Origin: a virus
Length of the DNA stretch: 18,833 bases
Reading direction: 5' to 3' (one strand)
Virus genome (UHGV): UHGV-0152950
The position numbers and the translations under genes are program-made. Below are positions 2,887 through 18,330 of this stretch, piece after piece. The notes beneath the pieces are model-generated. The model was not told the origin of the DNA. It saw only the letters and a program-made list of their open reading frames with translations, and did not search any database. Position 1 is the stretch's first letter. Each line of letters begins with the position of its first letter.

Positions 2887-3079
2887 AACAAAGCCTCTCA
2901 GTCATAACCTGGGGGAAACTGTATGCAGGGTGTGAAATGTGAGAAACAGACAGGCCACCAGTTCAGGGGGATGTGGTTCATAAATCCCCTCACTGGTGAC
3001 AAGTGACTTTCATTAATCTTTGTGCGGGGGCCAGCTTCATTTGCTGGCATTAGATTAAAAATTAAACGGAGTGAATGAC

Positions 3080-3214: not shown

Positions 3215-3868
3215 TCAAAGTATCACGGTATCTTCATCAACTTCTTTCCCAGCCAGTGACTTTGGCTGGGAGGTGCCTGCTTCAACTTTTTCATGCCCAA
3301 TAATGGACAGGAACGAAGCGAGTATGCCTGTTTTTTGCTCTTTCTCGACTGCGCCGGTCATCTGCTCTACGTAATCCGCACTGGCAACGTTGTGGTATAC
3401 GGTCGCGTAGCAACACAGGATCATAAGAATATGTTCCGGCCTGATGTCCTGCCAGTTCACCCGGTAGACTTCTTCTCCGTTACCATTGTATTCGGTATCA
3501 ACGATAGAGTCGGGGATTTCGAAAGCACCTTTGTTATTTTGCGGCAGGGATAATAGTTTCTGGAGTTTTAACTCTCTGTATCTTTCCATCCCGACGATGA
3601 TTGCTGCTCTACCATCGGCATGACGGGTCTTGAGAGTCACCTGACTTGCTCCGGTGCCAGCGGAGATCGTTGGCGTAATTTCGTCTACCAGTACCTTAAA
3701 TTTGCTTTTCCGCAGGGCTGCTATAGCTGGAGGAATTTTTTGCTTTTGCTCCAATGCTGACGCGGGAAGGGGTTTTACTTCGTTAATAATGAGAGCACCG
3801 TCTTTCAGTATTGCAGTGAGCATTTGAGGCTTGCTGGTGGTCAGGCTGAATATTGCGATCTTTTCCAT
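3215..3868 (-). CDS. Hypothetical protein
   Basis: Strong SD GGAGGAAGG before the internal ATG at 3868 (MEKIAIFSLTTSK...). The longer ORF to 3910 lacks an SD. 217 aa, no recognised motifs. Confidence 0.7.
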   Translation of the reverse strand: MEKIAIFSLTTSKPQMLTAILKDGALIINEVKPLPASALEQKQKIPPAIAALRKSKFKVLVDEITPTISAGTGASQVTLKTRHADGRAAIIVGMERYRELKLQKLLSLPQNNKGAFEIPDSIVDTEYNGNGEEVYRVNWQDIRPEHILMILCCYATVYHNVASADYVEQMTGAVEKEQKTGILASFLSIIGHEKVEAGTSQPKSLAGKEVDEDTVIL

Positions 3869-3890
3869 TGTCCTTCCTCCACGGATGACG

Positions 3891-3916
3891 GATACAAAAA
3901 AAGGCCGCACATGGCG
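3891..3916 (-). other. GC-rich hairpin with flanking T-run, terminator-like, immediately upstream of a gene start
   Basis: ggccgc acat gcggcc with A7 on plus (T7 after the hairpin on minus). It sits between the hairpin-less divergent intergenic region and the start of CDS 3215-3868. Confidence 0.3.
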
Positions 3917-4136
3917 GCCTGCTTTGGCGTTATGACTCCCTACCGCGCTTCGGCTGAAAGTTAATCGTCAAAAGAACCTTCAACGGGAGCCGTTAGCGCG
4001 ATGGATTATGTGCAGTTTGTGATTTCCAAAATAGTGTCAACCACTTTTTGTGGATTTTATTTTTTGACCGAAATTTGGCCTAAATCATGTTGATGTAGTT
4101 AATTGTTTTTATAACATAAAACTTCATTTTGTTTAC

Positions 4137-4760
4137 ATGAAGGATGGTGTAGTGAAGTTAAGGGTTTTAGGGGCCGCGCTCGCGGCTATGTTGGGATGCG
4201 TATCTGCTAATACTGCCAATGCAACTGCGTTACCTGCACAATTCAGGGCAGGGCAGCAGGTTATGAATAACGCTGGTGGGGATCATTCACAAGCGGCCAT
4301 TATGGACTTTTGCAAGAGGGAGGGCATTCCATTACGGCCTGTTGGAACTCAGTTTATTGGTAAAACTGACTTTTGCGTTTTTGCATATACAGCATATCTG
4401 ACGGACAAAGCTATAACAAAAACAGGTTATTCAACCAAAGATACTCTTTCCAGATTAAGTCAGGGATGGCAGCAATTCGAAGTGTATCGCCAGCAAGGAT
4501 TAGGTGAGTTATTGCAACCACTTTTTATGCTTGCGTTGGTGCCAGAGGGGCAGCAATTTTTGGTTAAAAAGGGAATGCTTCGCCAAAGTGATATTGCCGG
4601 GTTCGATAGCATGATGGCTTATGAGCGCAAACTAACCGAGCAGCGAAATAAAAAACCATCTGCTTCATGTGTGCAAAGTAAAACAGCAGAATACAGTGCA
4701 GTAGCCGGGCCTTTAGCCAAACAAATGGCAGAGCAATGGTGTAAAAAATACGGGCAATAA
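4137..4760 (+). CDS. Hypothetical secreted/periplasmic protein (Sec signal peptide)
   Basis: 207-aa ORF. Signal-peptide-like N-terminus ...KLRVLGAALAAMLGCVSANTANA. The alternative GTG start at 4152 has a better SD (AAGGA). Confidence 0.7.
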   Translation: MKDGVVKLRVLGAALAAMLGCVSANTANATALPAQFRAGQQVMNNAGGDHSQAAIMDFCKREGIPLRPVGTQFIGKTDFCVFAYTAYLTDKAITKTGYSTKDTLSRLSQGWQQFEVYRQQGLGELLQPLFMLALVPEGQQFLVKKGMLRQSDIAGFDSMMAYERKLTEQRNKKPSASCVQSKTAEYSAVAGPLAKQMAEQWCKKYGQ

Positions 4761-4780
4761 GTTACGCAGCGGAGGCAGAA

Positions 4781-5173
4781 TTGAAAAGATTGGCTATTGC
4801 TTTACTGGCGTCTTTCCCTTTGATCGCGAGCGCCGGAAATTTACAAGTTAAGTGCGGTCGGTTTGATATAAAAATCTATCCGGATGCCATATTTCTGAAT
4901 GGGAATAAGGTTGATAACGCACACCGAAAAACTGAATCTGACGTAATGAGCTATGTGTTCCAGGAGTATGCGGAGATGGGGGGAACTTACACGCTGTACT
5001 CGCTGGATGTTCCTTCTCGCGGTGATATGACATTATCCCATCAATGGCAGAACGCCGATGGCGAAGCTCTGCGCGAGGTTAAAACAGAAAAATGTGGCAC
5101 TTTCCATTCTTTTAAAGGGAAAGCGCCAAATGTTAAATCTGTGCTTGAAAAACAGCGCGCAGGTGAGCTTTAA
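4781..5173 (+). CDS. Hypothetical secreted protein (Sec signal peptide)
   Basis: TTG start at 4781 with strong SD GGAGG 5 nt upstream. N-terminus MKRLAIALLASFPLIASAGNLQ. 130 aa. Confidence 0.7.
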   Translation: MKRLAIALLASFPLIASAGNLQVKCGRFDIKIYPDAIFLNGNKVDNAHRKTESDVMSYVFQEYAEMGGTYTLYSLDVPSRGDMTLSHQWQNADGEALREVKTEKCGTFHSFKGKAPNVKSVLEKQRAGEL

Positions 5174-5540: not shown

Positions 5541-6482
5541 TTAACTAACAATCCAGTCCATAGCAATAACATCCTCTGGAGCTAAATCAATAGCATGGAT
5601 TTTCCCGTCACGGATGGTGCGCCAGTGCTTTCGTGATCCACCTTCGGGCCACACCCATATACCTTCAGGCCAGGAAGAACGACGACACACTGTTGCGTAT
5701 CCAGTCCTGAGCTTCTCTCTGACGGTATGTAGTGACAGATTATCCTTTGGGCTTTCAGGCACAGGATGGTGGATTGCCTGAAACATCCCCATCTTTGGAT
5801 GATACCAGCGTTTATTGCGTGGTTCTGCCTCCGACATCACCTGCTTAAAGGCTTTCCGGAAGGGGGCCAGGGCCACAATGGAGCGTCGCGCAAGCAAACC
5901 ATCTGGAGTTAAAAACTCATGCGTATCGGTGGGAATCCGGAAAGCGTTAACCAGGTTGCGACATTTGGCTTCAGTCAGGCCACATTTCGCCGCCAGCTGG
6001 CGGTAGCCAATGTAGCCTTCCGGAATATTGCCTTTCTTTATTTGCTCGAGTGTTTCAGCGACCATCGATACTTGTGCTGATACCTCGGCTACCTGGGCAT
6101 TTACGGCGTTGATCCGGCGTTCATGCTCAAGATGCATTTGCGCCATTTCAGCCAGAATTTCGGCTTTTGATTTTAACTGTACCCGGGCATTCTCCAGTTC
6201 GCGCCAGCGGTCCACCAGCCGGGCGGTGAATTCCGGAGAGAGCTGCGCGACGACAATGATGCTGTCTCGTTTTCCTTGTTCGCCTTCAAAGATGTAAGCC
6301 TTGGAAAATCGACGAGGGCCAACTGATTGTTTATTTTCAATTTCCACAGATTGTGGAAATTGGATCACACTCTTTTTAGCCAGTGTTTCGATAGTTCTCT
6401 TCACACTATCTGGGCGACTTCCTACCAGTTCCGCGATCTCAATACTGGTCATTGTCGCTTTTTGAGAGATGGACAGATTCAT
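5541..6482 (-). CDS. ant: Phage antirepressor, Rha/Ant family
   Basis: 313 aa. N-terminal MTSIEIAELVGSRPDSVKRTIETLAKK resembles the Rha regulatory-protein domain. Its ATG overlaps the stop of the upstream Icd-like gene (ATGA), as in the P1 immI icd-ant arrangement. Confidence 0.75.
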   Translation of the reverse strand: MNLSISQKATMTSIEIAELVGSRPDSVKRTIETLAKKSVIQFPQSVEIENKQSVGPRRFSKAYIFEGEQGKRDSIIVVAQLSPEFTARLVDRWRELENARVQLKSKAEILAEMAQMHLEHERRINAVNAQVAEVSAQVSMVAETLEQIKKGNIPEGYIGYRQLAAKCGLTEAKCRNLVNAFRIPTDTHEFLTPDGLLARRSIVALAPFRKAFKQVMSEAEPRNKRWYHPKMGMFQAIHHPVPESPKDNLSLHTVREKLRTGYATVCRRSSWPEGIWVWPEGGSRKHWRTIRDGKIHAIDLAPEDVIAMDWIVS

Positions 6483-6697
6483 CAGTGCACCTCCACGCAG
6501 TTCATCGGCAGATTCCAGTAATTGAGGATCTCCATCGCATCAAGAGTGAAGCGAGCAGCAAAAATGCAGGGTTCTTCGGGAAGGTATGAGCGCGCTTCTG
6601 CTTCGGTTGCAGCCATGACGCAGATATACAGGTGTTTTTGGCAGGAATAGAAACGCCAGATAAATTCAGAATGAGTTGGGGTAGGGGTAGTAGCCAT
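6482..6697 (-). CDS. icd: Icd-like protein (host cell division inhibitor family)
   Basis: 71-aa ORF MATTPTPTHSEFIWRFYSCQKHLYICVMAATEAEARSYLPEEPCIFAARF... resembles the Icd-like family from memory. Perfect SD AAGGAGG upstream; translationally coupled to ant. Confidence 0.6.
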   Translation of the reverse strand: MATTPTPTHSEFIWRFYSCQKHLYICVMAATEAEARSYLPEEPCIFAARFTLDAMEILNYWNLPMNCVEVH

Positions 6698-6754
6698 AAT
6701 GGCAGCCTCCTTTTGCTAATTTAAGGAGCTACCGCGTGAGGTTCCAATCTCAAT

Positions 6755-6835
6755 GGCGGTAGCACTGACTGGGTTGGAACTACCGGCGCAAAAGGGAACC
6801 GGCCTGCCTTTCGGCAGCCCAGCCAGCACTACCAT
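6755..6835 (-). ncRNA. Candidate C4-like antisense RNA (boundaries uncertain)
   Basis: Minus-strand hairpins GGCUGCC-GAAA-GGCAGGCC and GGUAG-(loop UUCCAACCCAGUCAGUG)-CUACC. The loop GUUCCAA is complementary to UUGGAAC upstream (about 6930) and just before the icd SD (about 6745). The RNA could instead be the 6883-6960 hairpin plus terminator. Confidence 0.3.
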
Positions 6836-6882
6836 TGATCTCTGAGCTAAACGCTACGTATGGCTGTGCGATGGCATGACAC

Positions 6883-6904
6883 AAAAAAAGACGCTTTCGG
6901 CGTC
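6883..6904 (-). terminator. Rho-independent terminator (minus strand)
   Basis: Hairpin gacgc tttcg gcgtc (6890-6904) followed on minus by a U7 run (plus A7 at 6883-6889). Confidence 0.5.
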
Positions 6905-7009
6905 TGTGTCGCCTTTTGCATTATCCGGGGTTCCAATCCCGGCACCCGTTTTTCTAAGGTGCCGTAGAAATATACCCCACGATAATGCCAGGGCGCAACA
7001 GTCAGTATT

Positions 7010-7177
7010 TTATGCTTTGGCGGATTTCTTCCGGGCTTGCTTGCAGGCGTAGGCCATTGCTTTAGCTTTCACTTCATCCAGCTTCCCGGTGATCACTTCT
7101 TTTCCGAGAGTGACAAACCAGTCATAGCAACCGCCAGTGATGTTCTGGATTTGAAAGTTGAGGTAGCGAACGGTCAT
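7010..7177 (-). CDS. Putative small protein (55 aa) with basic C-terminus
   Basis: Not in the ORF track. Hand translation MTVRYLNFQIQNITGGCYDWFVTLGKEVITGKLDEVKAKAMAYACKQARKKSAKA, with a G-rich SD-like sequence upstream. The overlapping plus ORF 7037-7255 lacks signals. Confidence 0.35.
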   Translation of the reverse strand: MTVRYLNFQIQNITGGCYDWFVTLGKEVITGKLDEVKAKAMAYACKQARKKSAKA

Positions 7178-7508
7178 TTTGACACCCCCAGCGCGAGTAA
7201 AGAATGCAGATTATCGCGTGAGTGGCGGACAACGAGTGATGGGAAAAGACAGTAGCTGTTCATAGTGTAGTGACTCCTTGCTTTCGGAGCCGCCATCGAC
7301 TGTTCCACGGTCTGGTGGCGGCGCAATAAAGGCTGGAACACCGTGAGTCAACGGGGGCTTTTCAGCCACCTATATTGCACCGCCATTGGTATGGCGGCGG
7401 CAATCATACGAAAAACTAAATAGTTTGTCTCAAAAAGTTGACCGGTGTGCCAATGGGTAGTGAATGTACATCGGAGCATTTTTCAATTCAACTTAAAATG
7501 TTAGAAAA

Positions 7509-8087
7509 CTAATTTATCAATTCAATCGCCATCTGATACAACGCCATTTCATCGGCATTGTGCCGCATGAAATCTGCTTTTCCGCCTATTTTTCCGTCAG
7601 CATGAACAGGGACCAGCCAGGGATATTGTTCTCGGACCTCGGCTGGCGCTGCGTACTGGTGGTGCCATTTACACAAAGGGAGGACATATTTATGCGCGTT
7701 CTCTGCCGTTCTCCCGAAGATATGGTGCAGGGATACCACTGGGCTATGTTGCCCGTGAATATGGCAGGCAATGCAGGGGAGAGTACCGATAGCGGTCTGT
7801 ATCCGGCGTTCATCGGCTGTGAGTGATCTGCCCTTCAGGCCGCGTGACGTGCGTGTTTTTTTGGACGGAGTGGATACAGCTTTCTCTTTTCTCCGCTGGT
7901 CATATTGCTTTGCTTTTTCAATTCTCTTTTGCCGATATTCAGGCGATGCGGCTTTTTCTCTCGCTCGTTGCTGCTGGCGTTGAGCTTGTTGAAGGCGCTT
8001 TGCCCTTTGTTCCTCTCGCCAGGCTGGGTCAGCCAATTTTTGCATGGCTTTTTGTCTCTGTTTCTCCCAATAGCTCTGTTTCTGCAT
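7509..8087 (-). CDS. ref: Ref-like recombination enhancement function protein (HNH-type nuclease)
   Basis: 192 aa. Highly basic low-complexity N-terminus, then Cys/His core CIACHIHGQHSPVVSLHHIFGRTAENAHKYVLPLCKWHHQ typical of P1 Ref-family HNH proteins. Confidence 0.7.
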   Translation of the reverse strand: MQKQSYWEKQRQKAMQKLADPAWREEQRAKRLQQAQRQQQRAREKAASPEYRQKRIEKAKQYDQRRKEKAVSTPSKKTRTSRGLKGRSLTADERRIQTAIGTLPCIACHIHGQHSPVVSLHHIFGRTAENAHKYVLPLCKWHHQYAAPAEVREQYPWLVPVHADGKIGGKADFMRHNADEMALYQMAIELIN

Positions 8088-8136
8088 GATGGCTGCCTCT
8101 TACTTTTCAGCTATTTTTCTATGATTGATCTAAATG

Positions 8137-8164
8137 GTTAGATATTCAAAATTGATTTTCTAAC
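8137..8164. promoter_or_regulatory. Operator-like palindrome GTTAGA-N16-TCTAAC overlapping a sigma70-like promoter (-35 TTGATT)
   Basis: gttagatattcaaaattgattttctaac. The -35 TTGATT (8152-8157) lies inside the palindrome, with TAATAT about 16 nt downstream. A near-identical 28-bp site occurs at 11238-11265. Confidence 0.4.
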
Positions 8165-8207
8165 ACAAAACATTAATATCATTCCTGATAACTGTTTGGA
8201 GGACATG

Positions 8208-8360
8208 ATGCTTATAGCTTTAAGTGCGATCCACCAGCCATCTGTGAATGAGATTGGCCTGTTCTATGTGTTGTTTTTCGGGGCGCTGGCGCTACTTGAG
8301 CTTGGTATTGAGCTTTTCGCAGTGCTTATGTTTTGCGTCACGATTTTGGGGAAATTTTGA
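8208..8360 (+). CDS. Putative small membrane protein (about 50 aa), translationally coupled to the next gene
   Basis: Not in the ORF track. SD GGAGG at 8198-8202 before ATG 8205/8208. Product MLIALSAIHQPSVNEIGLFYVLFFGALALLELGIELFAVLMFCVTILGKF. Its stop TGA overlaps the ATG at 8360 (TGATG). Confidence 0.35.
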   Translation: MLIALSAIHQPSVNEIGLFYVLFFGALALLELGIELFAVLMFCVTILGKF

Positions 8361-8983
8361 TGGTGAAACGTGTTTTGAAAATTTACATCGCGGGGCCGAT
8401 GACTGGTTATCCAGACTACAACCGTGCGGCGTTTAATGCGAAAGCGAGCGAGCTGATGTCTGAAGGGCATATCGTTCTGAATCCAGCTGTGTTACCTGGT
8501 GGCCTTTGTCAGAGTGAATACATGGATATTTGCCTGGCAATGGTGCGTTCTGCTGATGCTATCTATCTGCTTAAGGGCTGGGAAGCGTCCGCAGGAGCAC
8601 GAGCAGAACACGCCCTGGCTGAAAAACTGGAGCTGACGGTAATTTATGAAGCGCCATCTGACACAGATTGCAGAATGGCAGCGCATATTTACCGCGAACT
8701 GGTCGATGCGTTACGTGATGTTGCTATTGAATGTCACGGCACGGATCAGCTTCGCGCTCGCTTAAGCAATACCCTTTCCAGTTACCTGTCTTTAGCCGAA
8801 GGATACAACCTCCGACAGCGGAGAATGGTCAAATTAATCACGCGTTTATCTCAATCCCTGGCAAATGCCGAACCAACTAATCCGCTACCTAATGACGCAA
8901 TGAATTATCTGAAGTCATGCGGCGTTGTTTCTGAAGATGCAGTTCGTTTTGTGGAGTTTATGTCTCAGAGGATGTCGGCGTGA
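8360..8983 (+). CDS. DUF4406-like protein (nucleoside 2-deoxyribosyltransferase-like fold) with C-terminal extension
   Basis: ATG 8360 chosen; the track start at 8333 is a TTG. N-terminal KIYIAGPMTGYPDYNRAAFNAKASELMSEGHIVLNPAV...LLKGWEASAGARAEHALA matches the DUF4406 pattern from memory. Confidence 0.7.
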   Translation: MVKRVLKIYIAGPMTGYPDYNRAAFNAKASELMSEGHIVLNPAVLPGGLCQSEYMDICLAMVRSADAIYLLKGWEASAGARAEHALAEKLELTVIYEAPSDTDCRMAAHIYRELVDALRDVAIECHGTDQLRARLSNTLSSYLSLAEGYNLRQRRMVKLITRLSQSLANAEPTNPLPNDAMNYLKSCGVVSEDAVRFVEFMSQRMSA

Positions 8984-9297
8984 GCTGGCGGGGATGGGGA
9001 AGGGCAGAAATCATGATACTCCGCCAGTGCGCCGGAACTATGACGGTCGAGAGTATCGGGAAGCTGATCGGTCGTACCGGTGATGCCGTCAGGACTAAAG
9101 CGCGAGAGCTGGGGATCAGAATGATTCTGAAAGGTGACTTTCACCAGTCAGCCAAATATCGGCAGAGCGATATAGAGCTGGCGCGGCAGCTTCATCAGTG
9201 CGGTGTTCCCCGCCGTGAGATCGCAGAAAAACTCGAAATGCCCCTGGGCATGATTAATCAGTACGTTTATTTCGAAAGGAGAGTGCATGAAGTCTGA
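8980..9297 (+). CDS. Small putative DNA-binding (HTH-like) protein
   Basis: GTG 8980 overlaps the upstream stop (GTGA); alternative ATG at 9013. Segment MTVESIGKLIGRTGDAVRTKARELGI looks HTH-like. Confidence 0.6.
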   Translation: MSWRGWGRAEIMILRQCAGTMTVESIGKLIGRTGDAVRTKARELGIRMILKGDFHQSAKYRQSDIELARQLHQCGVPRREIAEKLEMPLGMINQYVYFERRVHEV

Positions 9298-9721
9298 AGG
9301 TTTAACGCCAGAGCAACTGGCGGAGCGTAACGCTCAGTATGTGACGGAAATTTTCCGTCTTGAGAAAGAGCGCGCGGCGCTGGCGGCGGAGAATGCAGGG
9401 CTAAAGGCGATATGTGATGACTGTCGCAGGTTCATCATGAATGGGGTGCAGATGGGTTATGTCAAGGTGCCAACAGCGGAAACAGATCCAGACCTTGAGA
9501 CAATACGTATTGCTATATCACCACAAAAGCCCATTCCAGCCACCGATGCTTTCCTGGCTGAAGTACGGGCGCAGGGGGTAGAGATGTACGCAGATAACCT
9601 CGACAACGGAGCAGACGACGCAGAACGAGGTGGTTTTGATTATGCCGTTAAGTTTCTACGCAGTGAAGCGTCTAGTGTACGTTTGTTCGCCGACCAGCTT
9701 CGCAAAGGAGGCAGCCAGTGA
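9287..9721 (+). CDS. ead/Ea22-like family protein
   Basis: SD AAGGAG 6 nt before ATG. C-terminal TDAFLAEVRAQGVEMYADNLDNGADDAERGGFDYAVKFLRSEASSVRLFADQLRKGG is shared almost exactly with CDS 12604-13197. Confidence 0.8.
   Translation: MKSEGLTPEQLAERNAQYVTEIFRLEKERAALAAENAGLKAICDDCRRFIMNGVQMGYVKVPTAETDPDLETIRIAISPQKPIPATDAFLAEVRAQGVEMYADNLDNGADDAERGGFDYAVKFLRSEASSVRLFADQLRKGGSQ
9536..9720. repeat. Direct repeat copy 1 (about 185 bp, 2 mismatches versus copy 2)
   Basis: Aligned by eye to 13011-13196. Covers the 3' coding end of an Ea22-like gene plus the SD and start codon of the next gene. Confidence 0.85.
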
Positions 9722-9993
9722 ATATCGACACGACAATAACGATCGATACGCTCCTAAATTCCGGTCTGGCACTTCTCGGTTGGCTTTACATCATGTTCAG
9801 TGCGGGGAAGTGGGCGGCCTCTGTTTTTCTAAAGCAGTGGGGAAAGCGCCGCAAACAGGAGAGACGCCAGAAAGCGTTAGAGGCGTTCTATGACGCATTT
9901 GAACTTAGCCGCATTGAGCCTGGCACAACAGCCAGGATAGCGACAAAAGGCGACCTGATGATAGTGATGTTCAGACAGGAGAAAACAAAATGA
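9718..9993 (+). CDS. Small membrane protein
   Basis: GTG start overlapping the upstream stop; SD AAGGAGG. One hydrophobic helix LLNSGLALLGWLYIMFSAG followed by a basic segment. Confidence 0.6.
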   Translation: MNIDTTITIDTLLNSGLALLGWLYIMFSAGKWAASVFLKQWGKRRKQERRQKALEAFYDAFELSRIEPGTTARIATKGDLMIVMFRQEKTK

Positions 9994-10214
9994 CAGAACA
10001 GACGATGACAAATCGCGAACTTGTTGATGCCGCGATTGAACTTGCTGGCGATTTTTATTCCATGATGGGTTACGAGCATCGACCTGGTTTTAAGTATTGG
10101 GAGTCACCGCATCCGCAAGAACAACAGGTGTTTGAAATGGCCTGCCGTGCTTTTGAGGTTATTCGCGGTTCTGATGTGATGGATGCCGTTGCCGACTTGG
10201 AGGATGAAGAGTGA
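9990..10214 (+). CDS. Hypothetical protein
   Basis: ATG overlaps the upstream stop (ATGA); SD-like CAGGAG; 74 aa, acidic C-terminus. Confidence 0.65.
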   Translation: MTEQTMTNRELVDAAIELAGDFYSMMGYEHRPGFKYWESPHPQEQQVFEMACRAFEVIRGSDVMDAVADLEDEE

Positions 10215-10522
10215 GCATCATTAAAGAAATGCCGGTAGAACGTGATGAATATGGCTGCTGGACACATCCGGAGTATGAAAAGTTTTGCGCAGGTCGTGAA
10301 TATATATCCACTGAGGAATTTGACGCCTGGATGAAGGAAAATAATCTTCAGTGGACTATTCGCAGTATGGATGAAGATGATTTTGATCTGGACGCAGCTG
10401 GTCCCGATATTGCCGCCTGGGAACCGGAGCGACCAGAGGGTGAAGGCTGGTTTGTTGGCTCTATTCATGACACTGAAGATGGTCCAGTTTGTATCTGGCT
10501 GCGGGAGAAGGTTGCCGCATGA
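10211..10522 (+). CDS. Hypothetical protein
   Basis: GTG start overlapping the upstream stop; 103 aa. Confidence 0.6.
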
Positions 10523-11211
10523 TCCAGGCTATGCATGAAGTGAATTTATATAGCCGTATTGATGGTTCTGGCTACAGAAACATATGGGTAGTTGGTGATC
10601 TGCATGGTTGCTACACCAGACTGATGTCCGAACTCCATCGTGTGGATTTTGACCCGGCGCAGGATTTACTGATATCGGTTGGCGACCTTATCGATCGCGG
10701 TACTGAAAATGTCGAATGTCTGGAACTATTGCAGATGCCCTGGTTCAGGGCAGTAATGGGGAACCATGAGCGGTTGATGCTTGATGCGTTAAGTCCTGAT
10801 GGCAACGTGAATAACTGGCTAATGAATGGCGGACAATGGTTCTTCATGCTGGACACTGATCAGGAAATATTAGCCAAGGCGCTGGTGGAGCTGGTAAAGC
10901 GTCTGCCATATATCATTGAGTTGAACACCGGACATGAAACTATCGTTATAGCCCATGCCGACTATCCAGGTGGAGAGTACCAGTTCGGTAAGGATGTATC
11001 GCTTTTTGATGTTGTCTGGTCGCGCAGTCGCGTCGGTGATTCGATAGATGGCATTGGTGGAGAAATCACAGGCGCAGATCGCTTTATCTTTGGGCACACA
11101 CCGGTACGAAGACCAAAAGCATACTGGAATCAGCACTACATAGACACGGGCGCGGTTTTTTGTGGAAATCTGACGCTAATGCAGGTGAAGGGAGGGCAGC
11201 TTAAAGTCTGA
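10519..11211 (+). CDS. Serine/threonine protein phosphatase (lambda PPase / PrpA-like metallophosphoesterase)
   Basis: Motifs GDLHGC, GDLIDRG, GNHE and IAHADYP present. ATG 10519 overlaps the upstream stop; the track start at 10489 is a TTG. Confidence 0.9.
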
Positions 11212-11237
11212 TCAAATCATTTACGCACTCAAAATGC

Positions 11238-11265
11238 GTTAGAATATTGATTTTAGTTTTCTAAC
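11238..11265. promoter_or_regulatory. Second operator-like palindrome GTTAGA-N16-TCTAAC overlapping a promoter (-35 TTGATT, -10 TATTTT)
   Basis: gttagaatattgattttagttttctaac. TTGATT at 11247-11252 and TATTTT 17 nt downstream. Lies in the only sizeable intergenic gap of the plus-strand array, upstream of the DUF968 gene. Confidence 0.4.
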
Positions 11266-11308
11266 ATATTATTTTACCACTCGGAACAAAACAGAGTCGG
11301 TATGCATT

Positions 11309-12304
11309 ATGAGTGCAATAATCACCCCATATGTCGTAAATGAAACTGGTGTGGCTGTCTTTCCGGTAGACAAGCCCACCAGCAACTACATCGGCGCAGG
11401 TCGCCGTTTCATTATCTCACCACTTCCGCGAGAACAGGCTGAAAACACTCCAGATGGCGTAGTGGATCTGAATTATTCGCTGGTTGCCAACCAGTCGCTG
11501 AAACCATTTTTTCAAAGCGAGCGCGTATTTAACGCGTTAGGCGGTGAAGATTCGCTTGTTCATTGGGTAAGTTCCAATATCCACGATTGCCAGGCGCACG
11601 ATAAGCGCGATTGCAGCCACCAGCTAACCACTCATTTCTATAACGGCTCTGCCGTTCGCCTGTGCTGGAAGCATGATGCGGAATACATGATGAAGGGGTA
11701 CAGCAAGCTGGACGACCAGTTATCCCTGAATCGCGCCAACTGGGTTATGAACTGGGCTGCGAGCGAGTTAAAACTACCGCCAGAACGCGATCTGAGCATG
11801 GTTGAACTCACTTTTTGGGCCATTCGCCGGAATCTGAAAGATGAGCTGCCAGATGAAGCCGGGCGCATTGCATTTTGTCAGCCAAAAACTGAAATCCCTA
11901 CCGGTGCGCTGAAAGAATCAGATATCACCTGGGAGCGCAGTACGCGCGAGCTGGTGGACATAACCGCAGAGCAGATCGTCAACCTGTCTGTAGATGAGGA
12001 TTCTGGCCTCCTATATATGCGCCGTCCAAAAACCTTACTCGGAAAAAGCCCGGCTTATCTCCGCTTTGTGGTTTCTCGTCCGTGCATCGGATGCGGTGGC
12101 AAAGTTAACCACCCGTTCATGTACCGCGCCCGCTCGTTAAACGAACACGACCGCTGGGCTGTTCCTCTTTGCGATGACTGCGCCAGAAGCGCAGAACACG
12201 ATGTCCGGGCATGGGAAAAAGCACATGGCATACGCCTTTATGTAGTCGCTAACCAGCTTTTCGACTTCGCCATCGAGCGCGGAGTGATCACGTTTAATAA
12301 CTGA
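11309..12304 (+). CDS. DUF968-like prophage protein with C-terminal Cys/His (HNH-like) cluster
   Basis: 331 aa. C-terminal CIGCGGKVNHPFMYRARSLNEHDRWAVPLCDDCARSAEHD resembles DUF968 proteins of lambdoid nin-type regions (from memory). Confidence 0.75.
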   Translation: MSAIITPYVVNETGVAVFPVDKPTSNYIGAGRRFIISPLPREQAENTPDGVVDLNYSLVANQSLKPFFQSERVFNALGGEDSLVHWVSSNIHDCQAHDKRDCSHQLTTHFYNGSAVRLCWKHDAEYMMKGYSKLDDQLSLNRANWVMNWAASELKLPPERDLSMVELTFWAIRRNLKDELPDEAGRIAFCQPKTEIPTGALKESDITWERSTRELVDITAEQIVNLSVDEDSGLLYMRRPKTLLGKSPAYLRFVVSRPCIGCGGKVNHPFMYRARSLNEHDRWAVPLCDDCARSAEHDVRAWEKAHGIRLYVVANQLFDFAIERGVITFNN

Positions 12305-12317
12305 TGGGAACAACGCA

Positions 12318-12617
12318 ATGAGTCAAGGTAACGGTGACGGAGCTGCAAAGTGCAGAATCTCCACTTGTTTGATTAATGGCAGAAAAATAGAACCGTGCGC
12401 GGCGCTGGCACAATCTCTGGAGCAGGATGCTGAATACACGACGCGAAAAGGCCTGCTGAAATACAAAGTCTATAACCATGAATTAATTCATTCACAGGAC
12501 CTGATCATGCTGCGGTCTGGTGAATTTTCTAAATCGCCTATTCGAGTTTCATTTTGCCCATTCTGTGGTGAAAGTCTGAAAACGTGGGAAGCGGAGGCAA
12601 CCAGTGAGCAAAATTAA
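12318..12617 (+). CDS. Small Cys-containing (zinc-ribbon-like) protein
   Basis: 99 aa with CRISTC ... CPFCG pairs; weak SD. Confidence 0.55.
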   Translation: MSQGNGDGAAKCRISTCLINGRKIEPCAALAQSLEQDAEYTTRKGLLKYKVYNHELIHSQDLIMLRSGEFSKSPIRVSFCPFCGESLKTWEAEATSEQN

Positions 12618-13197
12618 CTATCAAGAACTGCGCGAGGCGGCGGAACAGGCAACGCAAGATGAATGGGTAGCATATATTTTGCCGGGTCATAACGGCATTT
12701 ATCCTGCGCGCACGTCTGAGGGTAGGCATTGCGGATACTTTATTGACTGGCCTGGCGTCTGTCAGGGGCGGGAGAGCATCAGCATCAGAACCTACGCAGT
12801 GAATTGCAATGACGCATGGCTAAACACCGAAGGTGATGACATCTCCGGCTCATACGTTAAGTACAAAGACCATCAGGAAGTGGTTGCCGCTCTTGAGGCC
12901 AAGTGCGCGGCGCTGGCAGTGGAGAATGCGGCGCTTAAACAGTCGGAGAAGGAATTTAATAACTTCTGTCGTCAGGAGTACTACGGTTGGGAGGACAACT
13001 TCACGGAAACCCCAGCCACCGATGCTTTCCTGGCTGAAGTACGGGCGCAGGGGGTAGAGATGTACGCAGATAACCTCGACAACGGAGCAGACGACGTAGA
13101 ACGAGGTGGTTTTGATTATGCCGTTAAGTTTCTACGCAGTGAAGCGTCTAGTGTACGTTTGTTCGCCGACCAGCTTCGCAAAGGAGGCAACCAGTGA
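12604..13197 (+). CDS. ead/Ea22-like family protein
   Basis: GTG start with SD GGAGG. N-terminus MSKINYQELREAAEQATQDEW; C-terminal 60 aa near-identical to CDS 9287-9721. Confidence 0.8.
   Translation: MSKINYQELREAAEQATQDEWVAYILPGHNGIYPARTSEGRHCGYFIDWPGVCQGRESISIRTYAVNCNDAWLNTEGDDISGSYVKYKDHQEVVAALEAKCAALAVENAALKQSEKEFNNFCRQEYYGWEDNFTETPATDAFLAEVRAQGVEMYADNLDNGADDVERGGFDYAVKFLRSEASSVRLFADQLRKGGNQ
13011..13196. repeat. Direct repeat copy 2
   Basis: See copy 1 at 9536-9720. Confidence 0.85.
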
Positions 13198-13748
13198 GCA
13201 AGATTGACTATCAGGCACTGCGTGCCAAGGCAGAAAAAGCAACGTGTGGTGAGTGGTCGCTCGAATATGGAGAGGAGAGATTTGATGCTGGTGATGCGCT
13301 AATTCATCGTGAAGTTGTTGGATATCTTCCCATTTGCAGAATTGAAGGAGCGCATCCTGAAAGCGGTTTCGATGAAGATTTCCAGATGGAACAGCAGGCC
13401 AATGCTGAATTTATTGCTGCCTTTAATCCAAAGGTTGCTTTGGCACTACTGGATGAACGGGAAAGAAACCAGCAATACATCAAATCCCGCGACCAGGAGA
13501 ACGAGGATATTGCGCTAACGGTAGGGAAGTTGCGCGTTGAGCTTGAGGCAGAAAAACAGCGGGCAAAGGATCTGTTTATGGAAAATGCTCGGCTTAAGTC
13601 AGGTATAGCCGGTCTGATACACCTCGGTATTCGATATGCAGATGTTGATGTCATGAAAATTGCTGGAGATGCCCAGCTTTCTACCCCATGCACTGACAGC
13701 ATCATAAACAGCATTGCAACAGGCATTCGCATCAACGGAGGTGAGTAG
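13194..13748 (+). CDS. ead/Ea22-like family protein (N-terminal paralog, different C-terminus)
   Basis: GTG start overlapping the upstream stop. N-terminus MSKIDYQALRAKAEKATCGEW parallels that of 12604; coiled-coil middle. Confidence 0.75.
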   Translation: MSKIDYQALRAKAEKATCGEWSLEYGEERFDAGDALIHREVVGYLPICRIEGAHPESGFDEDFQMEQQANAEFIAAFNPKVALALLDERERNQQYIKSRDQENEDIALTVGKLRVELEAEKQRAKDLFMENARLKSGIAGLIHLGIRYADVDVMKIAGDAQLSTPCTDSIINSIATGIRINGGE

Positions 13749-13920
13749 TGCGTGTGGCATGTATTGGCTTGTTACCGTACCCGACTCGTTTTTGGGCTTC
13801 TGCGCTAATTGCAAAGCCACAGGTCCTGATGGCTGACAACATCACCCCAGCACCAAAGCGCCGCCATACCGGTATTGCAGCGGCACGACGAGCAGCAAAG
13901 AGACGCAGGAGAGCAAAGCG

Positions 13921-14097
13921 ATGAAAAACCGTAAGGCAAAACGACTTTTTTTACAGCGACCTGTGCGTGTGGTGGAGCTGGTTATTAGCAACCATAAGAT
14001 AGCGGTACTCCATCCATTTGGTCAGGTGGCTTTTGCCGCAAAGCGTAAGCCTACTGCGTCACAGAACAGGCGGAAGAAAGGGTACGCAGTAAGATGA
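13921..14097 (+). CDS. Putative small basic protein (58 aa)
   Basis: Not in the ORF track. Begins ATGAAAAACCGTAAGGCAAA, nearly identical to the start of the next ORF; its stop overlaps the next ATG. Confidence 0.3.
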   Translation: MKNRKAKRLFLQRPVRVVELVISNHKIAVLHPFGQVAFAAKRKPTASQNRRKKGYAVR

Positions 14098-14282
14098 AAA
14101 ACCGTAAAGCAAAGATTCTGTTAGTTCGTAGAAACGCTCCTGGCGTCTGGCAGTGGGTGAGACTCAGCAACCGACGGATGGGGTTGATGAAATATTACGG
14201 GATGATGGATTGTGGTTTTTGCAAAAAGCCCAGCGCGGCGCAAAACCGCTGGAAAAACCATTTGCGCACTAAAGGAGAGTGA
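14094..14282 (+). CDS. Small basic Cys-containing protein
   Basis: 62 aa, MKNRKAKILLVRRNAPGVWQW...CGFCKK. Confidence 0.5.
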   Translation: MKNRKAKILLVRRNAPGVWQWVRLSNRRMGLMKYYGMMDCGFCKKPSAAQNRWKNHLRTKGE

Positions 14283-14283
14283 T

Positions 14284-14493
14284 ATGGCTATTGCCGCAAG
14301 TTACACCATGCATCTCTATTGTGACTGCCGCCAGTGTACGGAAGGTGTATATCCAGTGCCAGACTTCGGTGAATATATCGGTACGTCATGGGCTGGCTGT
14401 GCAAAAGAGGCACGTAAGGATGGCTGGCGAATAAGCAAAGACAAAACACGTGCTTTTGCGCCCGGGCATAAAGTTTTGAGGATTAACAAATGA
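14284..14493 (+). CDS. Small Cys-rich protein (69 aa)
   Basis: Consensus SD AAGGAG 6 nt before ATG 14284. The track start 14212 overlaps the upstream gene and lacks an SD. CDC..C motif. Confidence 0.55.
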   Translation: MAIAASYTMHLYCDCRQCTEGVYPVPDFGEYIGTSWAGCAKEARKDGWRISKDKTRAFAPGHKVLRINK

Positions 14494-14750
14494 CCACTTT
14501 AACCGACAAAGAACTGATTAAAGAAATCAAAGAGCGTATCAGCAGCCTGGACGTTCGAGACAATATTGAACGCCGGGCTTATGAAATTGCACTGGCATCG
14601 CTGGAAGCAGATCCAGTTGCTTATATTTTCAAACATCCGGCCGGGAAATTATTCTGGGCTTTAACGGATGAAAGCAATAAAGAGCAAGCGGACGTTATTC
14701 CTGTTTATGCCGCCCCCTCCAGTACCAGTAGTACCTGCTGCATTACCTGA
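14490..14750 (+). CDS. N-terminal part of a DUF551-like protein (frame 0), probably interrupted by a frameshift
   Basis: ATG overlaps the upstream stop. Ends ...VIPVYAAPSSTSSTCCIT just after a C5 run (14713-14717). The +1 frame continues with a Pro-rich linker and the DUF551-like domain. Confidence 0.55.
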   Translation: MTTLTDKELIKEIKERISSLDVRDNIERRAYEIALASLEADPVAYIFKHPAGKLFWALTDESNKEQADVIPVYAAPSSTSSTCCIT

Positions 14751-15258
14751 GAACGACGATGAGGACGGGCATGACATTGATTATCTTGAGCCATCTGAAG
14801 TTTACTCGCTTGGGCGAACAGCTGGCTGGAACGCCTGCCGTGCTGCCATGCTTCATGGTGCCGAACCTGTAAGCCAAACTTACAAGTTGCCTCCCCTGTC
14901 ATCCAACGAAGTAAACGACGCGGCATGGAAATTACACAACATGCTGACTGAACACGGCCCGCTAAATGGGCGTCAGTTCAACAATCTGAAAGGTTGCTTC
15001 TATGAGGCATTAAAGGTCGCAATGCGCAACTATCCGGTAATTCCGGATAGTTGGATAAGCTGTAGTGAGCGAATGCCGGATACCAAAACAGCCGTTCTTG
15101 TTGCCAGGGAGTTTGACAGGAAAGGTGACTGGCGAATGAAATGGGCGACTTACATCCCGGGGCATCCTGACGCTAATGATGGGTGGGTAATACCTGGTGC
15201 GTCGTGGATACCATCACACTGGATGCCGCTACCAGAACCGCCGCAGGAGGCAAAATGA
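14707..15258 (+). CDS. DUF551-like protein, C-terminal part (frame +1)
   Basis: C-terminal WISCSERMPD...W...HWMPLPEPPQ resembles the DUF551 signature (tentative, from memory). The ORF opens at 14668; ATG 14707 limits the overlap. Confidence 0.6.
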   Translation: MPPPPVPVVPAALPENDDEDGHDIDYLEPSEVYSLGRTAGWNACRAAMLHGAEPVSQTYKLPPLSSNEVNDAAWKLHNMLTEHGPLNGRQFNNLKGCFYEALKVAMRNYPVIPDSWISCSERMPDTKTAVLVAREFDRKGDWRMKWATYIPGHPDANDGWVIPGASWIPSHWMPLPEPPQEAK

Positions 15259-15515
15259 TGGATGTAAAAGAGAAGGTTTTGCAGGTGATACGTTCCCGTG
15301 CGGCCCTGCAAGAGAAAGCTCTCGGCGGGGAATATCCATTCACGATAGCAACCTGGAATCTGCGGTTGGCAATGGAGAAGGAATTTCCTGATGAAGAATG
15401 GCGCTCGGCAGATTTGCGCAAAATTCTTATGGAGATGGCTAAAGACGGAACAGTATCCAAAGATACCCATGCCAGCCGGATTGGTCAGGCGGTATGGAGA
15501 CTGGAGGTGAGGTAA
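15255..15515 (+). CDS. Hypothetical protein (86 aa)
   Basis: SD AGGAGG 6 nt before ATG 15255; overlaps the upstream stop. Confidence 0.65.
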   Translation: MMDVKEKVLQVIRSRAALQEKALGGEYPFTIATWNLRLAMEKEFPDEEWRSADLRKILMEMAKDGTVSKDTHASRIGQAVWRLEVR

Positions 15516-15552
15516 TGGCTAACCTGCAACTTGCCGTCAAAGGTGAAAAGAT

Positions 15553-15774
15553 TTGAGGATTCGCATCATTAATAACACCGACAAGCATCCGGAAGATTAT
15601 TTGGATTGCTCGTTAGCAGAGTGCGGTATTTCCGTATGGGATGAGTTCGATGTGATGCGTAAAACCGCTTACGGCTATGTCGTAATTCATAACGGAGAAG
15701 AATTATTTGTTCGTCGGTCAGAATGCGTGGAATTGATAGAAGAGAATCTCCGCACATCGGCAACACACAGCTAA
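15553..15774 (+). CDS. Hypothetical protein, putative TTG start
   Basis: AGGTGA SD-like about 5 nt before TTG 15553. No in-frame ATG near the 5' end, so the start is uncertain. Confidence 0.35.
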   Translation: MRIRIINNTDKHPEDYLDCSLAECGISVWDEFDVMRKTAYGYVVIHNGEELFVRRSECVELIEENLRTSATHS

Positions 15775-15800
15775 ATATGTTCGCAATAAAGGTTAAATCA

Positions 15801-16217
15801 ATGGCTAAATTTCAAAGAGCTATTATTTTTCTGGCTATGTTATCAGCCAGTCATTTATCCCACGCGTCAGTTGTTGCCGCTGGAGCGGCGGCAACAGCAG
15901 CGACCACGGCGGCAGTAAATGCTTCTATCGCTAGCGAGCAAGCGCGGCGTACTGCAATCAATGCATCTGCCAATACCACCATGGTATCAGCAACACAAGA
16001 AAAGCCGAATATCGGCTTTGTTACTTGTGGCAAGCGATATGGTGAAATGGTTGGCTCTCTTGGTTGCGTAATGTGGCAAGACGACGACCGTACAGAAATT
16101 CCGTGGAACTCATGGCCTGGCTACATTCTTGGTAAGAAGCTGCCCACCAGCTATGAAGTAAATGCTATTTCGTTCGACCAATATAACAGTGTTGCAACGG
16201 TATATTTCTCTTATTAA
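15801..16217 (+). CDS. Hypothetical secreted protein (signal peptide), Ala/Thr-rich N-terminal region
   Basis: Internal ATG 15801 gives MAKFQRAIIFLAMLSASHLSHA, then Ala/Thr-rich low complexity. The longer track ORF start overlaps the upstream gene. Confidence 0.6.
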   Translation: MAKFQRAIIFLAMLSASHLSHASVVAAGAAATAATTAAVNASIASEQARRTAINASANTTMVSATQEKPNIGFVTCGKRYGEMVGSLGCVMWQDDDRTEIPWNSWPGYILGKKLPTSYEVNAISFDQYNSVATVYFSY

Positions 16218-16229
16218 CACGGAGTAATT

Positions 16230-16523
16230 ATGTGGCGAGGTAATAATCATGGCGGAAGCCAGATGATACTTACCGAATATACATTCGACCACAAAACCAA
16301 TAAATCACGTTCAGTATATTTGCTTCGGCACAATAGCCGCGTAAGGAATACCGTGCTGGAGCAAAATCTGACCGTTGAAATGGATAATTACGGGGGCTTC
16401 AAGCCAACAATTTCGCTTGATGATTTTCCTCGTGGTTTAAGCGAAAGAGAAGCAATGCTGAAATTAGCAGAATGGCTACAAAGATTAAGCATTGCTATTG
16501 AAGATAACTGGTCTGAACCTTAA
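16230..16523 (+). CDS. Hypothetical protein
   Basis: SD GGAG 7 nt before ATG 16230; 97 aa. Confidence 0.6.
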   Translation: MWRGNNHGGSQMILTEYTFDHKTNKSRSVYLLRHNSRVRNTVLEQNLTVEMDNYGGFKPTISLDDFPRGLSEREAMLKLAEWLQRLSIAIEDNWSEP

Positions 16524-16529
16524 GTTTAT

Positions 16530-16904
16530 ATGATGACACTAAAACATTTTCTTGACCGCCCATTATGGGCGGCAGCCGCAGGCTATGACTTTAATTATAT
16601 GGATTGCATGTCTTATACCGCCAATGCATACGACCATTCGTTCAGTCTGCTGTTTAATTCTTTAAGAATATTGCCGCAAACAGAAGTTGGAGAGCTTCAT
16701 TTATGGCTATTGGGCTTTATCGCGGCTGTAGTTGGTATTGCTGTATGGCCTTTTATTTTCTGGCTGGTGGCTGTTGTCGTGTGGTTTAAGTGCAAGGCAT
16801 ACCGGAAAAAGTATTTCTTAGGTGATGGAATGACTGATATTGCCAAAATGAACATTGAAAAATGGACTAAGGAATGTGAAAAGAAATGGCGCAAAAAGAA
16901 ATGA
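16530..16904 (+). CDS. Hypothetical membrane protein
   Basis: 124 aa. Hydrophobic helix LHLWLLGFIAAVVGIAVWPFIFWLVAVVVWF followed by a Lys-rich tail. Confidence 0.6.
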   Translation: MMTLKHFLDRPLWAAAAGYDFNYMDCMSYTANAYDHSFSLLFNSLRILPQTEVGELHLWLLGFIAAVVGIAVWPFIFWLVAVVVWFKCKAYRKKYFLGDGMTDIAKMNIEKWTKECEKKWRKKK

Positions 16905-17659
16905 CAAGAATCACTAAAGAACGCATATCAGAGATTATCGCCCGTATCGAAATGTATGGTCACGGTGCTGGATATACGGCAGATGAAGTATTGGCACTTG
17001 CCCAAATGGCTTTGGCGGCTTGCAAAGATGATAAAAAAATGAAGCTTATCGACTTGTTAGTGAAGGAGCTGCCTAAGTGCGGCGGGTGGCCTGATGGTAT
17101 GATCGATTGTCGCCTGCTCAGTGCCAATTTAATGGCGCCATGCGCGACTTTTGCTTTTGGCTCAGACCACAAAAAAGACACGTTCTTTGGGCGCAATTTT
17201 TGTTGTGAGATTGAGCTTCCAATTGGTGACCTTGATAGCGATGAATACCTGTCAGTTGTCACTCGCGAACAATACGAATCAGCTCTCATAGCGTCGCAGA
17301 AAGTCGAGTTCAATGGTGATGAACTTGAAAGTAAGACTTACAGGTTGGATTTTGGGCAATGGCTGGAACAGCAACGCGGGAAAATCGATGTGGACTGTGG
17401 TTGTGTGTCCACTGAAACATTCATGCACTGGCTGCGGGTAGCTTACGAGGCTGGCAACCATCCGGATTTTCCGGATAGTTCCCAACAATCGCCCAAGAAA
17501 AGCGTAAAAACCACTCTGGAAAGAGGCTATCTTGAGGCCGCATTAAAGATTAAGCCGGGCCATACGCTAGGCGTCATTGATGCCATGTTGGTTCATGAAA
17601 TGGCGAAGGCTTTATTGCCGCTGGTGGCTGATAAAATTCCGAATAAGGCCGATATCTGA
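16886..17659 (+). CDS. Hypothetical protein, Cys-containing
   Basis: 257 aa. The alternative ATG at 16901 overlaps the upstream stop (ATGA). Confidence 0.7.
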   Translation: MAQKEMTRITKERISEIIARIEMYGHGAGYTADEVLALAQMALAACKDDKKMKLIDLLVKELPKCGGWPDGMIDCRLLSANLMAPCATFAFGSDHKKDTFFGRNFCCEIELPIGDLDSDEYLSVVTREQYESALIASQKVEFNGDELESKTYRLDFGQWLEQQRGKIDVDCGCVSTETFMHWLRVAYEAGNHPDFPDSSQQSPKKSVKTTLERGYLEAALKIKPGHTLGVIDAMLVHEMAKALLPLVADKIPNKADI

Positions 17660-17670
17660 TCACCATGCTA

Positions 17671-17702
17671 AAATCCCCTCAATTCACAGAGGGGATTTTT
17701 GT
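17671..17702 (+). terminator. Rho-independent terminator ending the long plus-strand array
   Basis: aaatcccctc aattcaca gaggggattttt: GC stem followed by a T-run. Confidence 0.7.
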
Positions 17703-17704
17703 AT

Positions 17705-17971
17705 ATGTTGCATAGAGTTTTATGGAAAAGCGTTATTGTCGGCGCGATACTGGCTATATCTGGGTGTGCAATGGTGCAATACAACGACGGTGAAAAGGTA
17801 AGCATACAGTCAGATGGTTGGTATGGCCTGGATAGCCTGCAAAAAACCGCAGATAAAGCCTGTCAGCAATATGGGAAGTCTAAAGCAGTATATCAGCATA
17901 GCGCGAACGCTAACCCTCATCTAGCGCCCGGTTCTGGTGTTCAGAATACCATCTGGAAATGTGAGCCTTAA
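17705..17971 (+). CDS. Putative lipoprotein
   Basis: ATG 17705 (TTG at 17699 is in frame). N-terminus [21 protein letters not shown] has a lipobox-like ISGC. Confidence 0.65.
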
Positions 17972-18310: not shown

Positions 18311-18330
18311 TACTGTATGAATAAACAGTA
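18311..18330 (+). promoter_or_regulatory. LexA (SOS) box
   Basis: TACTGTATGAATAAACAGTA matches CTGT-N8-ACAG with flanking TA/TA, 19 nt upstream of the UmuD'-like gene start. Confidence 0.8.

Follow-up and report, generated by a model that had tools for sequence, protein, structure and literature searches.

Which protein reads a 28-bp palindrome, GTTAGA-N16-TCTAAC, that stands in front of two long arrays of unknown early genes in a phage-plasmid of Escherichia coli? The question is raised by 18,833 nucleotides of viral DNA (UHGV virus genome UHGV-0152950), the whole of which is called the window here. By its sequence, the window is a piece of a D6-like phage-plasmid (plasmid prophage) of the P1 family: positions 7000-12500 share 95% identity with phage D6 and 99.3% with the E. 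coli plasmid CP125036. A first-pass annotation of the window had noted the palindrome at 8137-8164 (site 1) and a second one with the same half-sites and spacing at 11238-11265 (site 2). It had suggested one dimeric repressor for both arrays, with no obvious gene for it in the window. We propose, by analogy with the C1 system of phage P1, that the palindromes serve the element's own C1-type immunity repressor as bivalent operators, and we put the probability of this reading at about 0.8.

Results

Both palindromes are exact. The motif occurs without mismatch at site 1 (GTTAGATATTCAAAATTGATTTTCTAAC) and at site 2 (GTTAGAATATTGATTTTAGTTTTCTAAC), and the window holds no further copy, even with one mismatch tolerated. 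Two matches compare with 0.04 expected, a number reached in none of 200 dinucleotide shuffles. The perfect 6-bp inverted repeat and its identical second copy therefore stand as first described. A -35-like TTGATT lies within each of them (8152-8157 and 11247-11252), also as described. At site 1, however, it abuts the right half-site and does not overlap it as had been claimed. A hairpin or cruciform was considered and rejected, single-strand folding yielding only −3.0 and −3.3 kcal/mol for the two sites (z-scores −1.3 and −2.2).

The same spacing recurs genome-wide. For this analysis we used two complete relatives, the E. coli plasmid CP125036 (92 kb) and phage D6; a relative's complete genome (about 91 kb) carries four to five palindromes, exclusively at spacing 16. 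In CP125036, four palindromes with at most one mismatch are found 5' of rdgC/hrdC, at the two window sites and immediately 5' of lpa, every one at spacing 16, and a fifth with two mismatches lies 5' of the icd/antirepressor operon. D6 presents the same picture with a more degenerate copy at lpa, ATTAGG-N16-TCTAAT. In both genomes the four matches at spacing 16 (at most one mismatch) stand against 60 other spacings with 0.12-0.15 matches each on average (Poisson p ~1e-5). The first-pass annotation had proposed such a genome-wide search and had named a random frequency of the motif as grounds for giving up the operator reading. The motif proved specific, with matches confined to spacing 16, and the operator reading is therefore not refuted on these grounds.

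The palindrome turned out to be composite. Listing all occurrences of TCTAAC with their context led to an asymmetric 19-nt logo and position weight matrix (PWM), built from 17 sites, in which each palindrome half is one copy of the word AAwTTArTTT-TCTAAC-AyA, covering positions −10 to +8. D6 and CP125036 each contain 12 copies of its 9-mer core, TTTCTAACA, where 0.9 would be expected, a 13-fold over-representation. Coding sequence makes up 89.8% of D6, yet 11 of its 12 copies fall between genes (binomial p = 1.4e-10). Besides the palindromes, single asymmetric copies of the word are present at about eight further promoters, that of c1 included: in the c1 leader, 5' of repL, 5' of the orf117-dut operon, beside orf52 and around pmgS/pmgR. 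Applied to the window, the PWM returned five strong half-sites at three loci. Site 1 scored 27.8 for 8149-8167(+) and 14.8 for 8134-8152(−), and site 2 scored 26.9 for 11250-11268(+) and 21.6 for 11235-11253(−). The third locus, which had gone unnoticed in the first-pass annotation, is a single copy, AAATTAGTTTTCTAACATT, overlapping the stop codon of ref; its score equals that of the best palindrome halves, and D6 and CP125036 both have an equivalent site. The next best match in the window (4100-4118, score 9.7) does not rise above chance and was not taken as a site. An inner mini-palindrome, TTAG-N4-CTAA, was tried as the recognition unit of the single sites and dropped for its inconsistency between them.

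The cores of the two half-sites are 22 bp apart, centre to centre. Since single asymmetric copies are common, we interpret each palindrome as a pair of copies of the word in opposite orientation, overlapping by about 4 bp and probably occupied by two repressor molecules and not by one classical dimer. The dimeric repressor suggested initially finds no support in the presence of single asymmetric copies at many promoters, nor in a core spacing of 22 bp, which is not that of a classical one-turn dimer of helix-turn-helix (HTH) proteins. The idea of one regulator for both arrays, on the other hand, gained weight: sites 1 and 2 and the further sites of the element have one recognition word in common, which makes a single regulator the natural reading.

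Conservation was followed in 35 IMG/VR relatives and D6, which provided 20 distinct sequences for site 1 and 29 for site 2. TTAGA, TCTAAC and the internal TTGATT were unchanged throughout, and only the first position of the left half-site changed from G to A, in one sequence class at site 1 and in two sequences at site 2. Around the left half-site, three nucleotides on the inner side and about five on the outer side vary freely, insertions and deletions included. In four relatives the leaders of ref and orf88 have diverged beyond easy alignment, and there, too, the stretch from the ref −10 hexamer through the palindrome is intact; the block CTATGRTTGATC is kept even where the remaining ref leader has diverged. 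In one relative (L020, positions 3669-4957) the palindromes are only 1.26 kb apart, and all that is left of the first array is a DUF4406 fragment and ppp. Since the operators were kept while this array shrank, the arrays between them are highly exchangeable cargo and the operators are the fixed part. Two distant elements, with C1 proteins 52% and 48% identical to that of the D6 type, have GTTAGA-N16-T(A/C)TAA(C/A) 5' of lpa, and their c1 leaders contain TTTTCTAACA.

The sites are embedded in promoter-like sequence, in agreement with the operator-like appearance noted at first. Site 1 lies, as first described, in the divergent region between ref and the DUF4406 array, inside a 120-bp gap that separates ref on the minus strand from a plus-strand array opening with a 50-codon open reading frame (ORF; orf88) and the DUF4406 gene. 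Two -35-like hexamers stand back to back within this palindrome, and each half-site falls into the spacer of one putative promoter (Table 1). The spacer of the orf88 promoter has 16 nt and holds the right half-site TCTAAC (8159-8164); its −35 is invariant, and a -10-like hexamer occupies the same columns in divergent relatives. The spacer of the putative ref promoter has 17 nt and holds the left half-site. Site 2 is situated 44 bp 5' of the DUF968 gene, which heads the second plus-strand array and has its ATG at 11309. There, a 17-nt spacer holds TCTAAC (11260-11265), and both promoter hexamers are invariant in 29 of 29 distinct sequences. The third site heads a leftward unit of small ORFs, an isrK-like RNA, a C4 RNA, icd and, finally, an antirepressor gene.

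As to the repressor itself, tblastn with the D6-type and P1 C1 proteins as queries detected no C1 homologue in the window, in line with the initial remark that a repressor gene was missing from it. In relatives, a C1-family gene is located about 5 kb past the right end of the window (CP125036 55117-56154; orf1 of D6). It is also present in two further loci (L076 and L077), and another one (L078) has a homologue with 30% identity. The D6-type protein, a 'prophage repressor' of 345 aa, is encoded next to pacB and a cre-like recombinase gene, as in P1. Both D6-type and P1 C1 match phrog_1678 over their full length (E 1.9e-167 and 1.3e-139), and in precomputed annotations all database homologues of the D6-type protein belong to PF27008 (Phage_P7_repressor_C1). 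Pfam detected no HTH domain in this presumed repressor.

The genes that carry the word are familiar from P1. C1 of P1 recognizes 22 dispersed operators with the asymmetric 17-bp consensus ATTGCTCTAATAAATTT and controls repL and lpa, and the immI operon is among the operons that control C1 activity (PMC8546580). P1 ref is a lytic gene under C1 repression (PMC4713147). The P1 GenBank record lists C1 operators at ref, mat, c1/coi, pmgR/pmgS, pmgT and lpa, among them OpmgT of the pmgT-pmgU-pmgV unit, and a 28-bp bivalent operator, Oc1ab, formed by two overlapping 17-mers. The D6-type word is found at ref, lpa, c1, pmgR/pmgS, the operon with a pmgU-like gene (which in D6 is part of the second array), C4-icd-ant and repL. 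This gene set overlaps the C1 regulon of P1 and is essentially the same. The module of C4, isrK-like RNA, icd and antirepressor in the window has the layout of the P1 immI operon. Related genomes have a second icd/antirepressor module elsewhere, with a palindromic operator at its head.

The words themselves differ. The P1 word ATTGCTCTAA is present eight times in 17.3 kb of P1 and not once in D6-like elements, while TTTCTAACA is absent from the 17.3 kb of P1 examined; the core TCTAA is the sole part that both have in common.

The element is widely distributed. More than 100 plasmid records contain most of positions 7000-12500, and the control region around site 1 (8088-8200) was found in 74 of 5,426 complete E. 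coli genomes, plasmid-borne and in single copy in each of them. None of these 74 genomes has an annotated feature over the control region. The D6 GenBank record labels many genes as 'similar to P1 gene ...' and has no operator annotation, nor has RefSeq. A full-text literature search for the motif and for C1 operators of D6-like elements returned nothing relevant; the D6 genome paper lay outside this search, and a prior description is therefore possible.

Discussion

The D6-type sites have the features of C1-type operators, namely dispersed copies, an asymmetric unit in single and double form, a C1-family gene in the same element, a regulon overlapping that of P1 and an overlap with putative promoters. 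As in P1 and P7, one short word is dispersed over a plasmid prophage of about 90 kb at early and lytic promoters (ref, lpa, c1, pmgR/S, the immI operon and repL). The unit is asymmetric and 17-19 nt long, comes alone (Oref, Olpa and OpmgT in P1) or as a 28-bp double site (Oc1ab in P1), and the cognate repressors belong to the same family (PF27008, phrog_1678). We infer that C1 is the binder and that its binding represses transcription. C1 would most likely recognize the asymmetric word, which is about 19 nt long. In the plasmid prophage, its binding to site 1 would cover the back-to-back −35 hexamers and the spacers of the ref and orf88/DUF4406...ppp promoters, and its binding to site 2 would cover the −35 hexamer and the spacer in front of the DUF968 operon. 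The single copy at the end of ref would act in the same manner on the leftward C4-icd-antirepressor unit. With repressor in place, RNA polymerase would be kept off three promoters of the window and a further one at the third site. Upon loss or inactivation of C1, these units would be released together with lpa, repL and the genes at the other sites of the genome.

Several observations weigh against this assignment. In the D6 lineage the link between C1 and the word consists of analogy and co-occurrence. No co-variation with the half-site was seen over C1 classes of 100, 97, 90, 81, 77, 52 and 48% identity, because every D6-type C1 class sampled keeps the same word; co-occurrence therefore cannot separate C1 from another conserved factor of the lineage. 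D6-type and P1 C1 share only 20% pairwise identity (and differ in size, with 345 aa versus 283 aa). The c1 leader has one single copy of the word and no palindrome. The hexamers of the putative promoters are weak, with 8 of 12 consensus positions, and a consensus promoter scan made no call at any of the putative promoters. The P1 consensus, with up to three mismatches allowed, has no match in the window, CP125036 or D6, against nine in 17.3 kb of P1; the D6-type sites are therefore not P1-immunity operators but operators that belong to the same type of system and differ in specificity. Finally, the geometry of the double sites is reversed. In D6-like elements the cores face outward and are 22 bp apart, whereas those of P1 Oc1ab face inward at 12 bp, and the units overlap at the opposite end. 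The lpa gene, too, has a double site in D6-like elements and a single one in P1.

A different regulator of the element, symmetric and dimeric, could read the palindromes while C1 binds some other sequence. The product of 8980-9297, which the first-pass annotation had put forward as an HTH candidate, might be such a protein and act like a Cro, or the regulator might be encoded elsewhere. The 8980-9297 product matches phrog_323 ('transcriptional regulator, D5-like') and, weakly, a sigma-70 region 4 HTH, and the perfect two-fold symmetry of the sites, with N16 strictly fixed in all relatives, would suit a dimer; in addition, the evidence for binding by C1 is indirect. However, the good single asymmetric copies at about eight further promoters would be superfluous for a strictly symmetric dimer, and the controlled genes match the P1 C1 regulon. 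If C1 had another target, one would look for its word, and no alternative over-represented one was found, the P1-type word being absent. The candidate itself does not hold up well: the product is fragment-like, its HTH match is below threshold (16 bits versus 25.7 for Pfam), and the relative with the shortened first array keeps both palindromes without a homologue of it within 11 kb of sequence. We consider another regulator improbable. Still less would we expect the sites to be mere promoter architecture or targets of a host nucleoid or global protein such as H-NS, IHF or Fis. The region is AT-rich with -35-like hexamers, and H-NS does bind the regulatory region of ref in P1 (PMC4713147). Yet GTTAGA and TCTAAC are invariant while the adjoining AT-rich bases vary freely, the over-represented 9-mer is nearly always intergenic in the element, and P1, in the same host, uses a different word. 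A LexA box was rejected as the identity of the word, to which it bears no resemblance.

The word might instead belong to late promoters dependent on Lpa, and the palindromes would then be activator sites. A palindrome is found immediately 5' of lpa in all lineages examined, and some single copies are near pmgS/pmgR, genes with 'morphogenetic' labels. Late promoters of P1, however, combine an AAGTnACTT-type −22 box, annotated as AAGTGACTT/AAGTTACTT, with a −10 and have no −35, the box taking its place, whereas the D6-type sites contain a TTGATT −35; the window sites do not conform to this type. Moreover, in gene orientation the word is absent 5' of 17 of 18 late or structural operon regions of D6 (lysis, sheath, tube, baseplate, portal, tail fibre, dar and capsid among them), and the capsid region has one TCTAAT. 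The word does occur at c1, repL, icd/ant and ref, all of them early and controlled by C1 in P1, where pmgR and pmgS are themselves under C1 control. We give this explanation hardly any credence. A copy of the P1-type −22 box, the 9-bp palindrome AAGTGACTT, was seen in the window at 3001-3009, in the gap that separates mat from the operon of baseplate gene 26/25. The D6 genome contains only two exact copies of it, and most late promoters of the D6 type must therefore use another box.

The C1 operators proposed here also invite comparison with OR and OL of lambdoid phages, the sites of CI and Cro. In lambdoid phages about one helical turn separates the half-sites, and the operators cluster beside the repressor gene. 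Alike are palindromic repressor sites over the −35 and spacer of early prophage promoters, and the ability of one site in a divergent region to control two promoters. In D6-like elements, however, two turns lie between the cores, the sites are spread over about 90 kb, many of them single and asymmetric, no repressor gene lies beside them, and C1 has no HTH recognized by Pfam. They are not lambda-type operators.

How could a repressor read a long asymmetric word? The C1 family has no solved structure, and searches of PDB sequences with both C1 proteins were empty. We examined an AlphaFold model of a 97%-identical C1 homologue, computed from a nine-sequence alignment, with a mean predicted local distance difference test (pLDDT) score of 84.4 and a predicted template modelling (pTM) score of 0.57. 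The sole solved structure that the model resembles is Tus, with modest TM-scores of 0.36-0.43. A viral structure library contained no significant match to the model, the profile comparison detected no sequence similarity between C1 and Tus (hhalign probability 0.2%), and our literature search found no paper linking the two. Tus, the replication terminator protein of E. coli, clamps its asymmetric site (Ter) as a monomer, and a Tus-fold prediction therefore fits asymmetric operators. We suggest, tentatively and with somewhat more doubt than conviction, that the C1 repressors of P1 and D6 have a Tus fold and that the sites are bound by monomers of such a clamp and not by an HTH dimer. The likeness is one of predicted protein fold only: Tus-Ter arrests replication forks, whereas C1 represses transcription, and we do not count the sites as Ter sites. 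If true, the fold would explain the long asymmetric operators, and a D6-type bivalent operator would seat two clamps head-to-head, 22 bp apart, opposite to the arrangement in P1. The C1 family would then be the first Tus-fold transcription repressor, which would raise the question whether its sites are polar roadblocks.

These findings extend the P1 paradigm to a sister lineage that is little studied. They do not overturn the current understanding and will hardly surprise a specialist. D6-like phage-plasmids are common, and the operator word permits a one-line mapping of their immunity regulon, to which ref, lpa and repL belong as well as two antirepressor modules and both long arrays with their unknown early genes. 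The word also allows homo-immune elements to be predicted and may help in designing tools for induction or curing, for example by operator titration. As a second, divergent operator set of the C1 family, the D6-type sites may assist the study of asymmetric DNA reading by unusual repressors.

Further features of the window

The operators, the putative promoters and the genes and RNAs around them are compiled in Table 1.

Table 1. Operators, putative promoters (hexamers as read in the DNA sequence), genes and RNAs around the two arrays; positions are those of the window.
Feature	Position	Strand	Remarks
Proposed bivalent operator 1	8137-8164; with flanks 8134-8167		Two overlapping 19-nt words; ref / orf88-DUF4406 divergent region
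Proposed bivalent operator 2	11238-11265; with flanks 11235-11268		5' of the DUF968 (pdcB-like) operon
Proposed single (monovalent) operator, third site	7497-7515	−	AAATTAGTTTTCTAACATT; PWM score 26.9
Putative sigma-70 promoter of orf88/DUF4406...ppp	8152-8179	+	−35 TTGATT 8152-8157; −10 TAATAT 8174-8179
Putative ref promoter	8121-8149	−	−35 TTGAAT 8149-8144; −10 AATCAT 8126-8121
Putative DUF968-operon promoter	11247-11275	+	−35 TTGATT 11247-11252; −10 TATTTT 11270-11275
ref (RecA-dependent nuclease)	7509-8087	−	Annotated in 99% and 95% identical records; leftward target proposed for operator 1
First plus-strand array	8208-11211	+	orf88, DUF4406, 8980-9297 product, 3-4 small ORFs, ppp phosphatase; rightward target proposed for operator 1
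Second plus-strand array	11309-17800 (end approximate)	+	DUF968/pdcB-like gene, then many small early genes; target proposed for operator 2
C4 antisense RNA	6752-6839	−	Rfam, 76.7 bits
isrK-like Hfq-binding RNA	6884-6962	−	Rfam, 62.5 bits
icd	6482-6697	−	Downstream of C4 RNA
Rha-type antirepressor gene	5541-6482	−	After icd

A GATC (Dam) sequence at 8127-8130, between the putative ref −10 and the left half-site, is kept in all relatives despite its variable flanks. Control of ref might possibly be sensitive to methylation.

Outside the window, the interval between c1 and the gene of the cre-like recombinase contains a lox-like site (L003 8873-8911; about 54873-54911 in CP125036). Inverted arms of 13 bp, of the form ATAACTTTAAATA, enclose the spacer ATGCCAAT. 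The site is called 'rox' in the D6 record and was also seen in the two further loci with a C1-family gene.

The sole LexA box of the window has the perfect core CTGTATGAATAAACAG and lies at 18313-18328, about 20 bp 5' of humD (umuD-like); in P1, a LexA site is annotated at the corresponding position.
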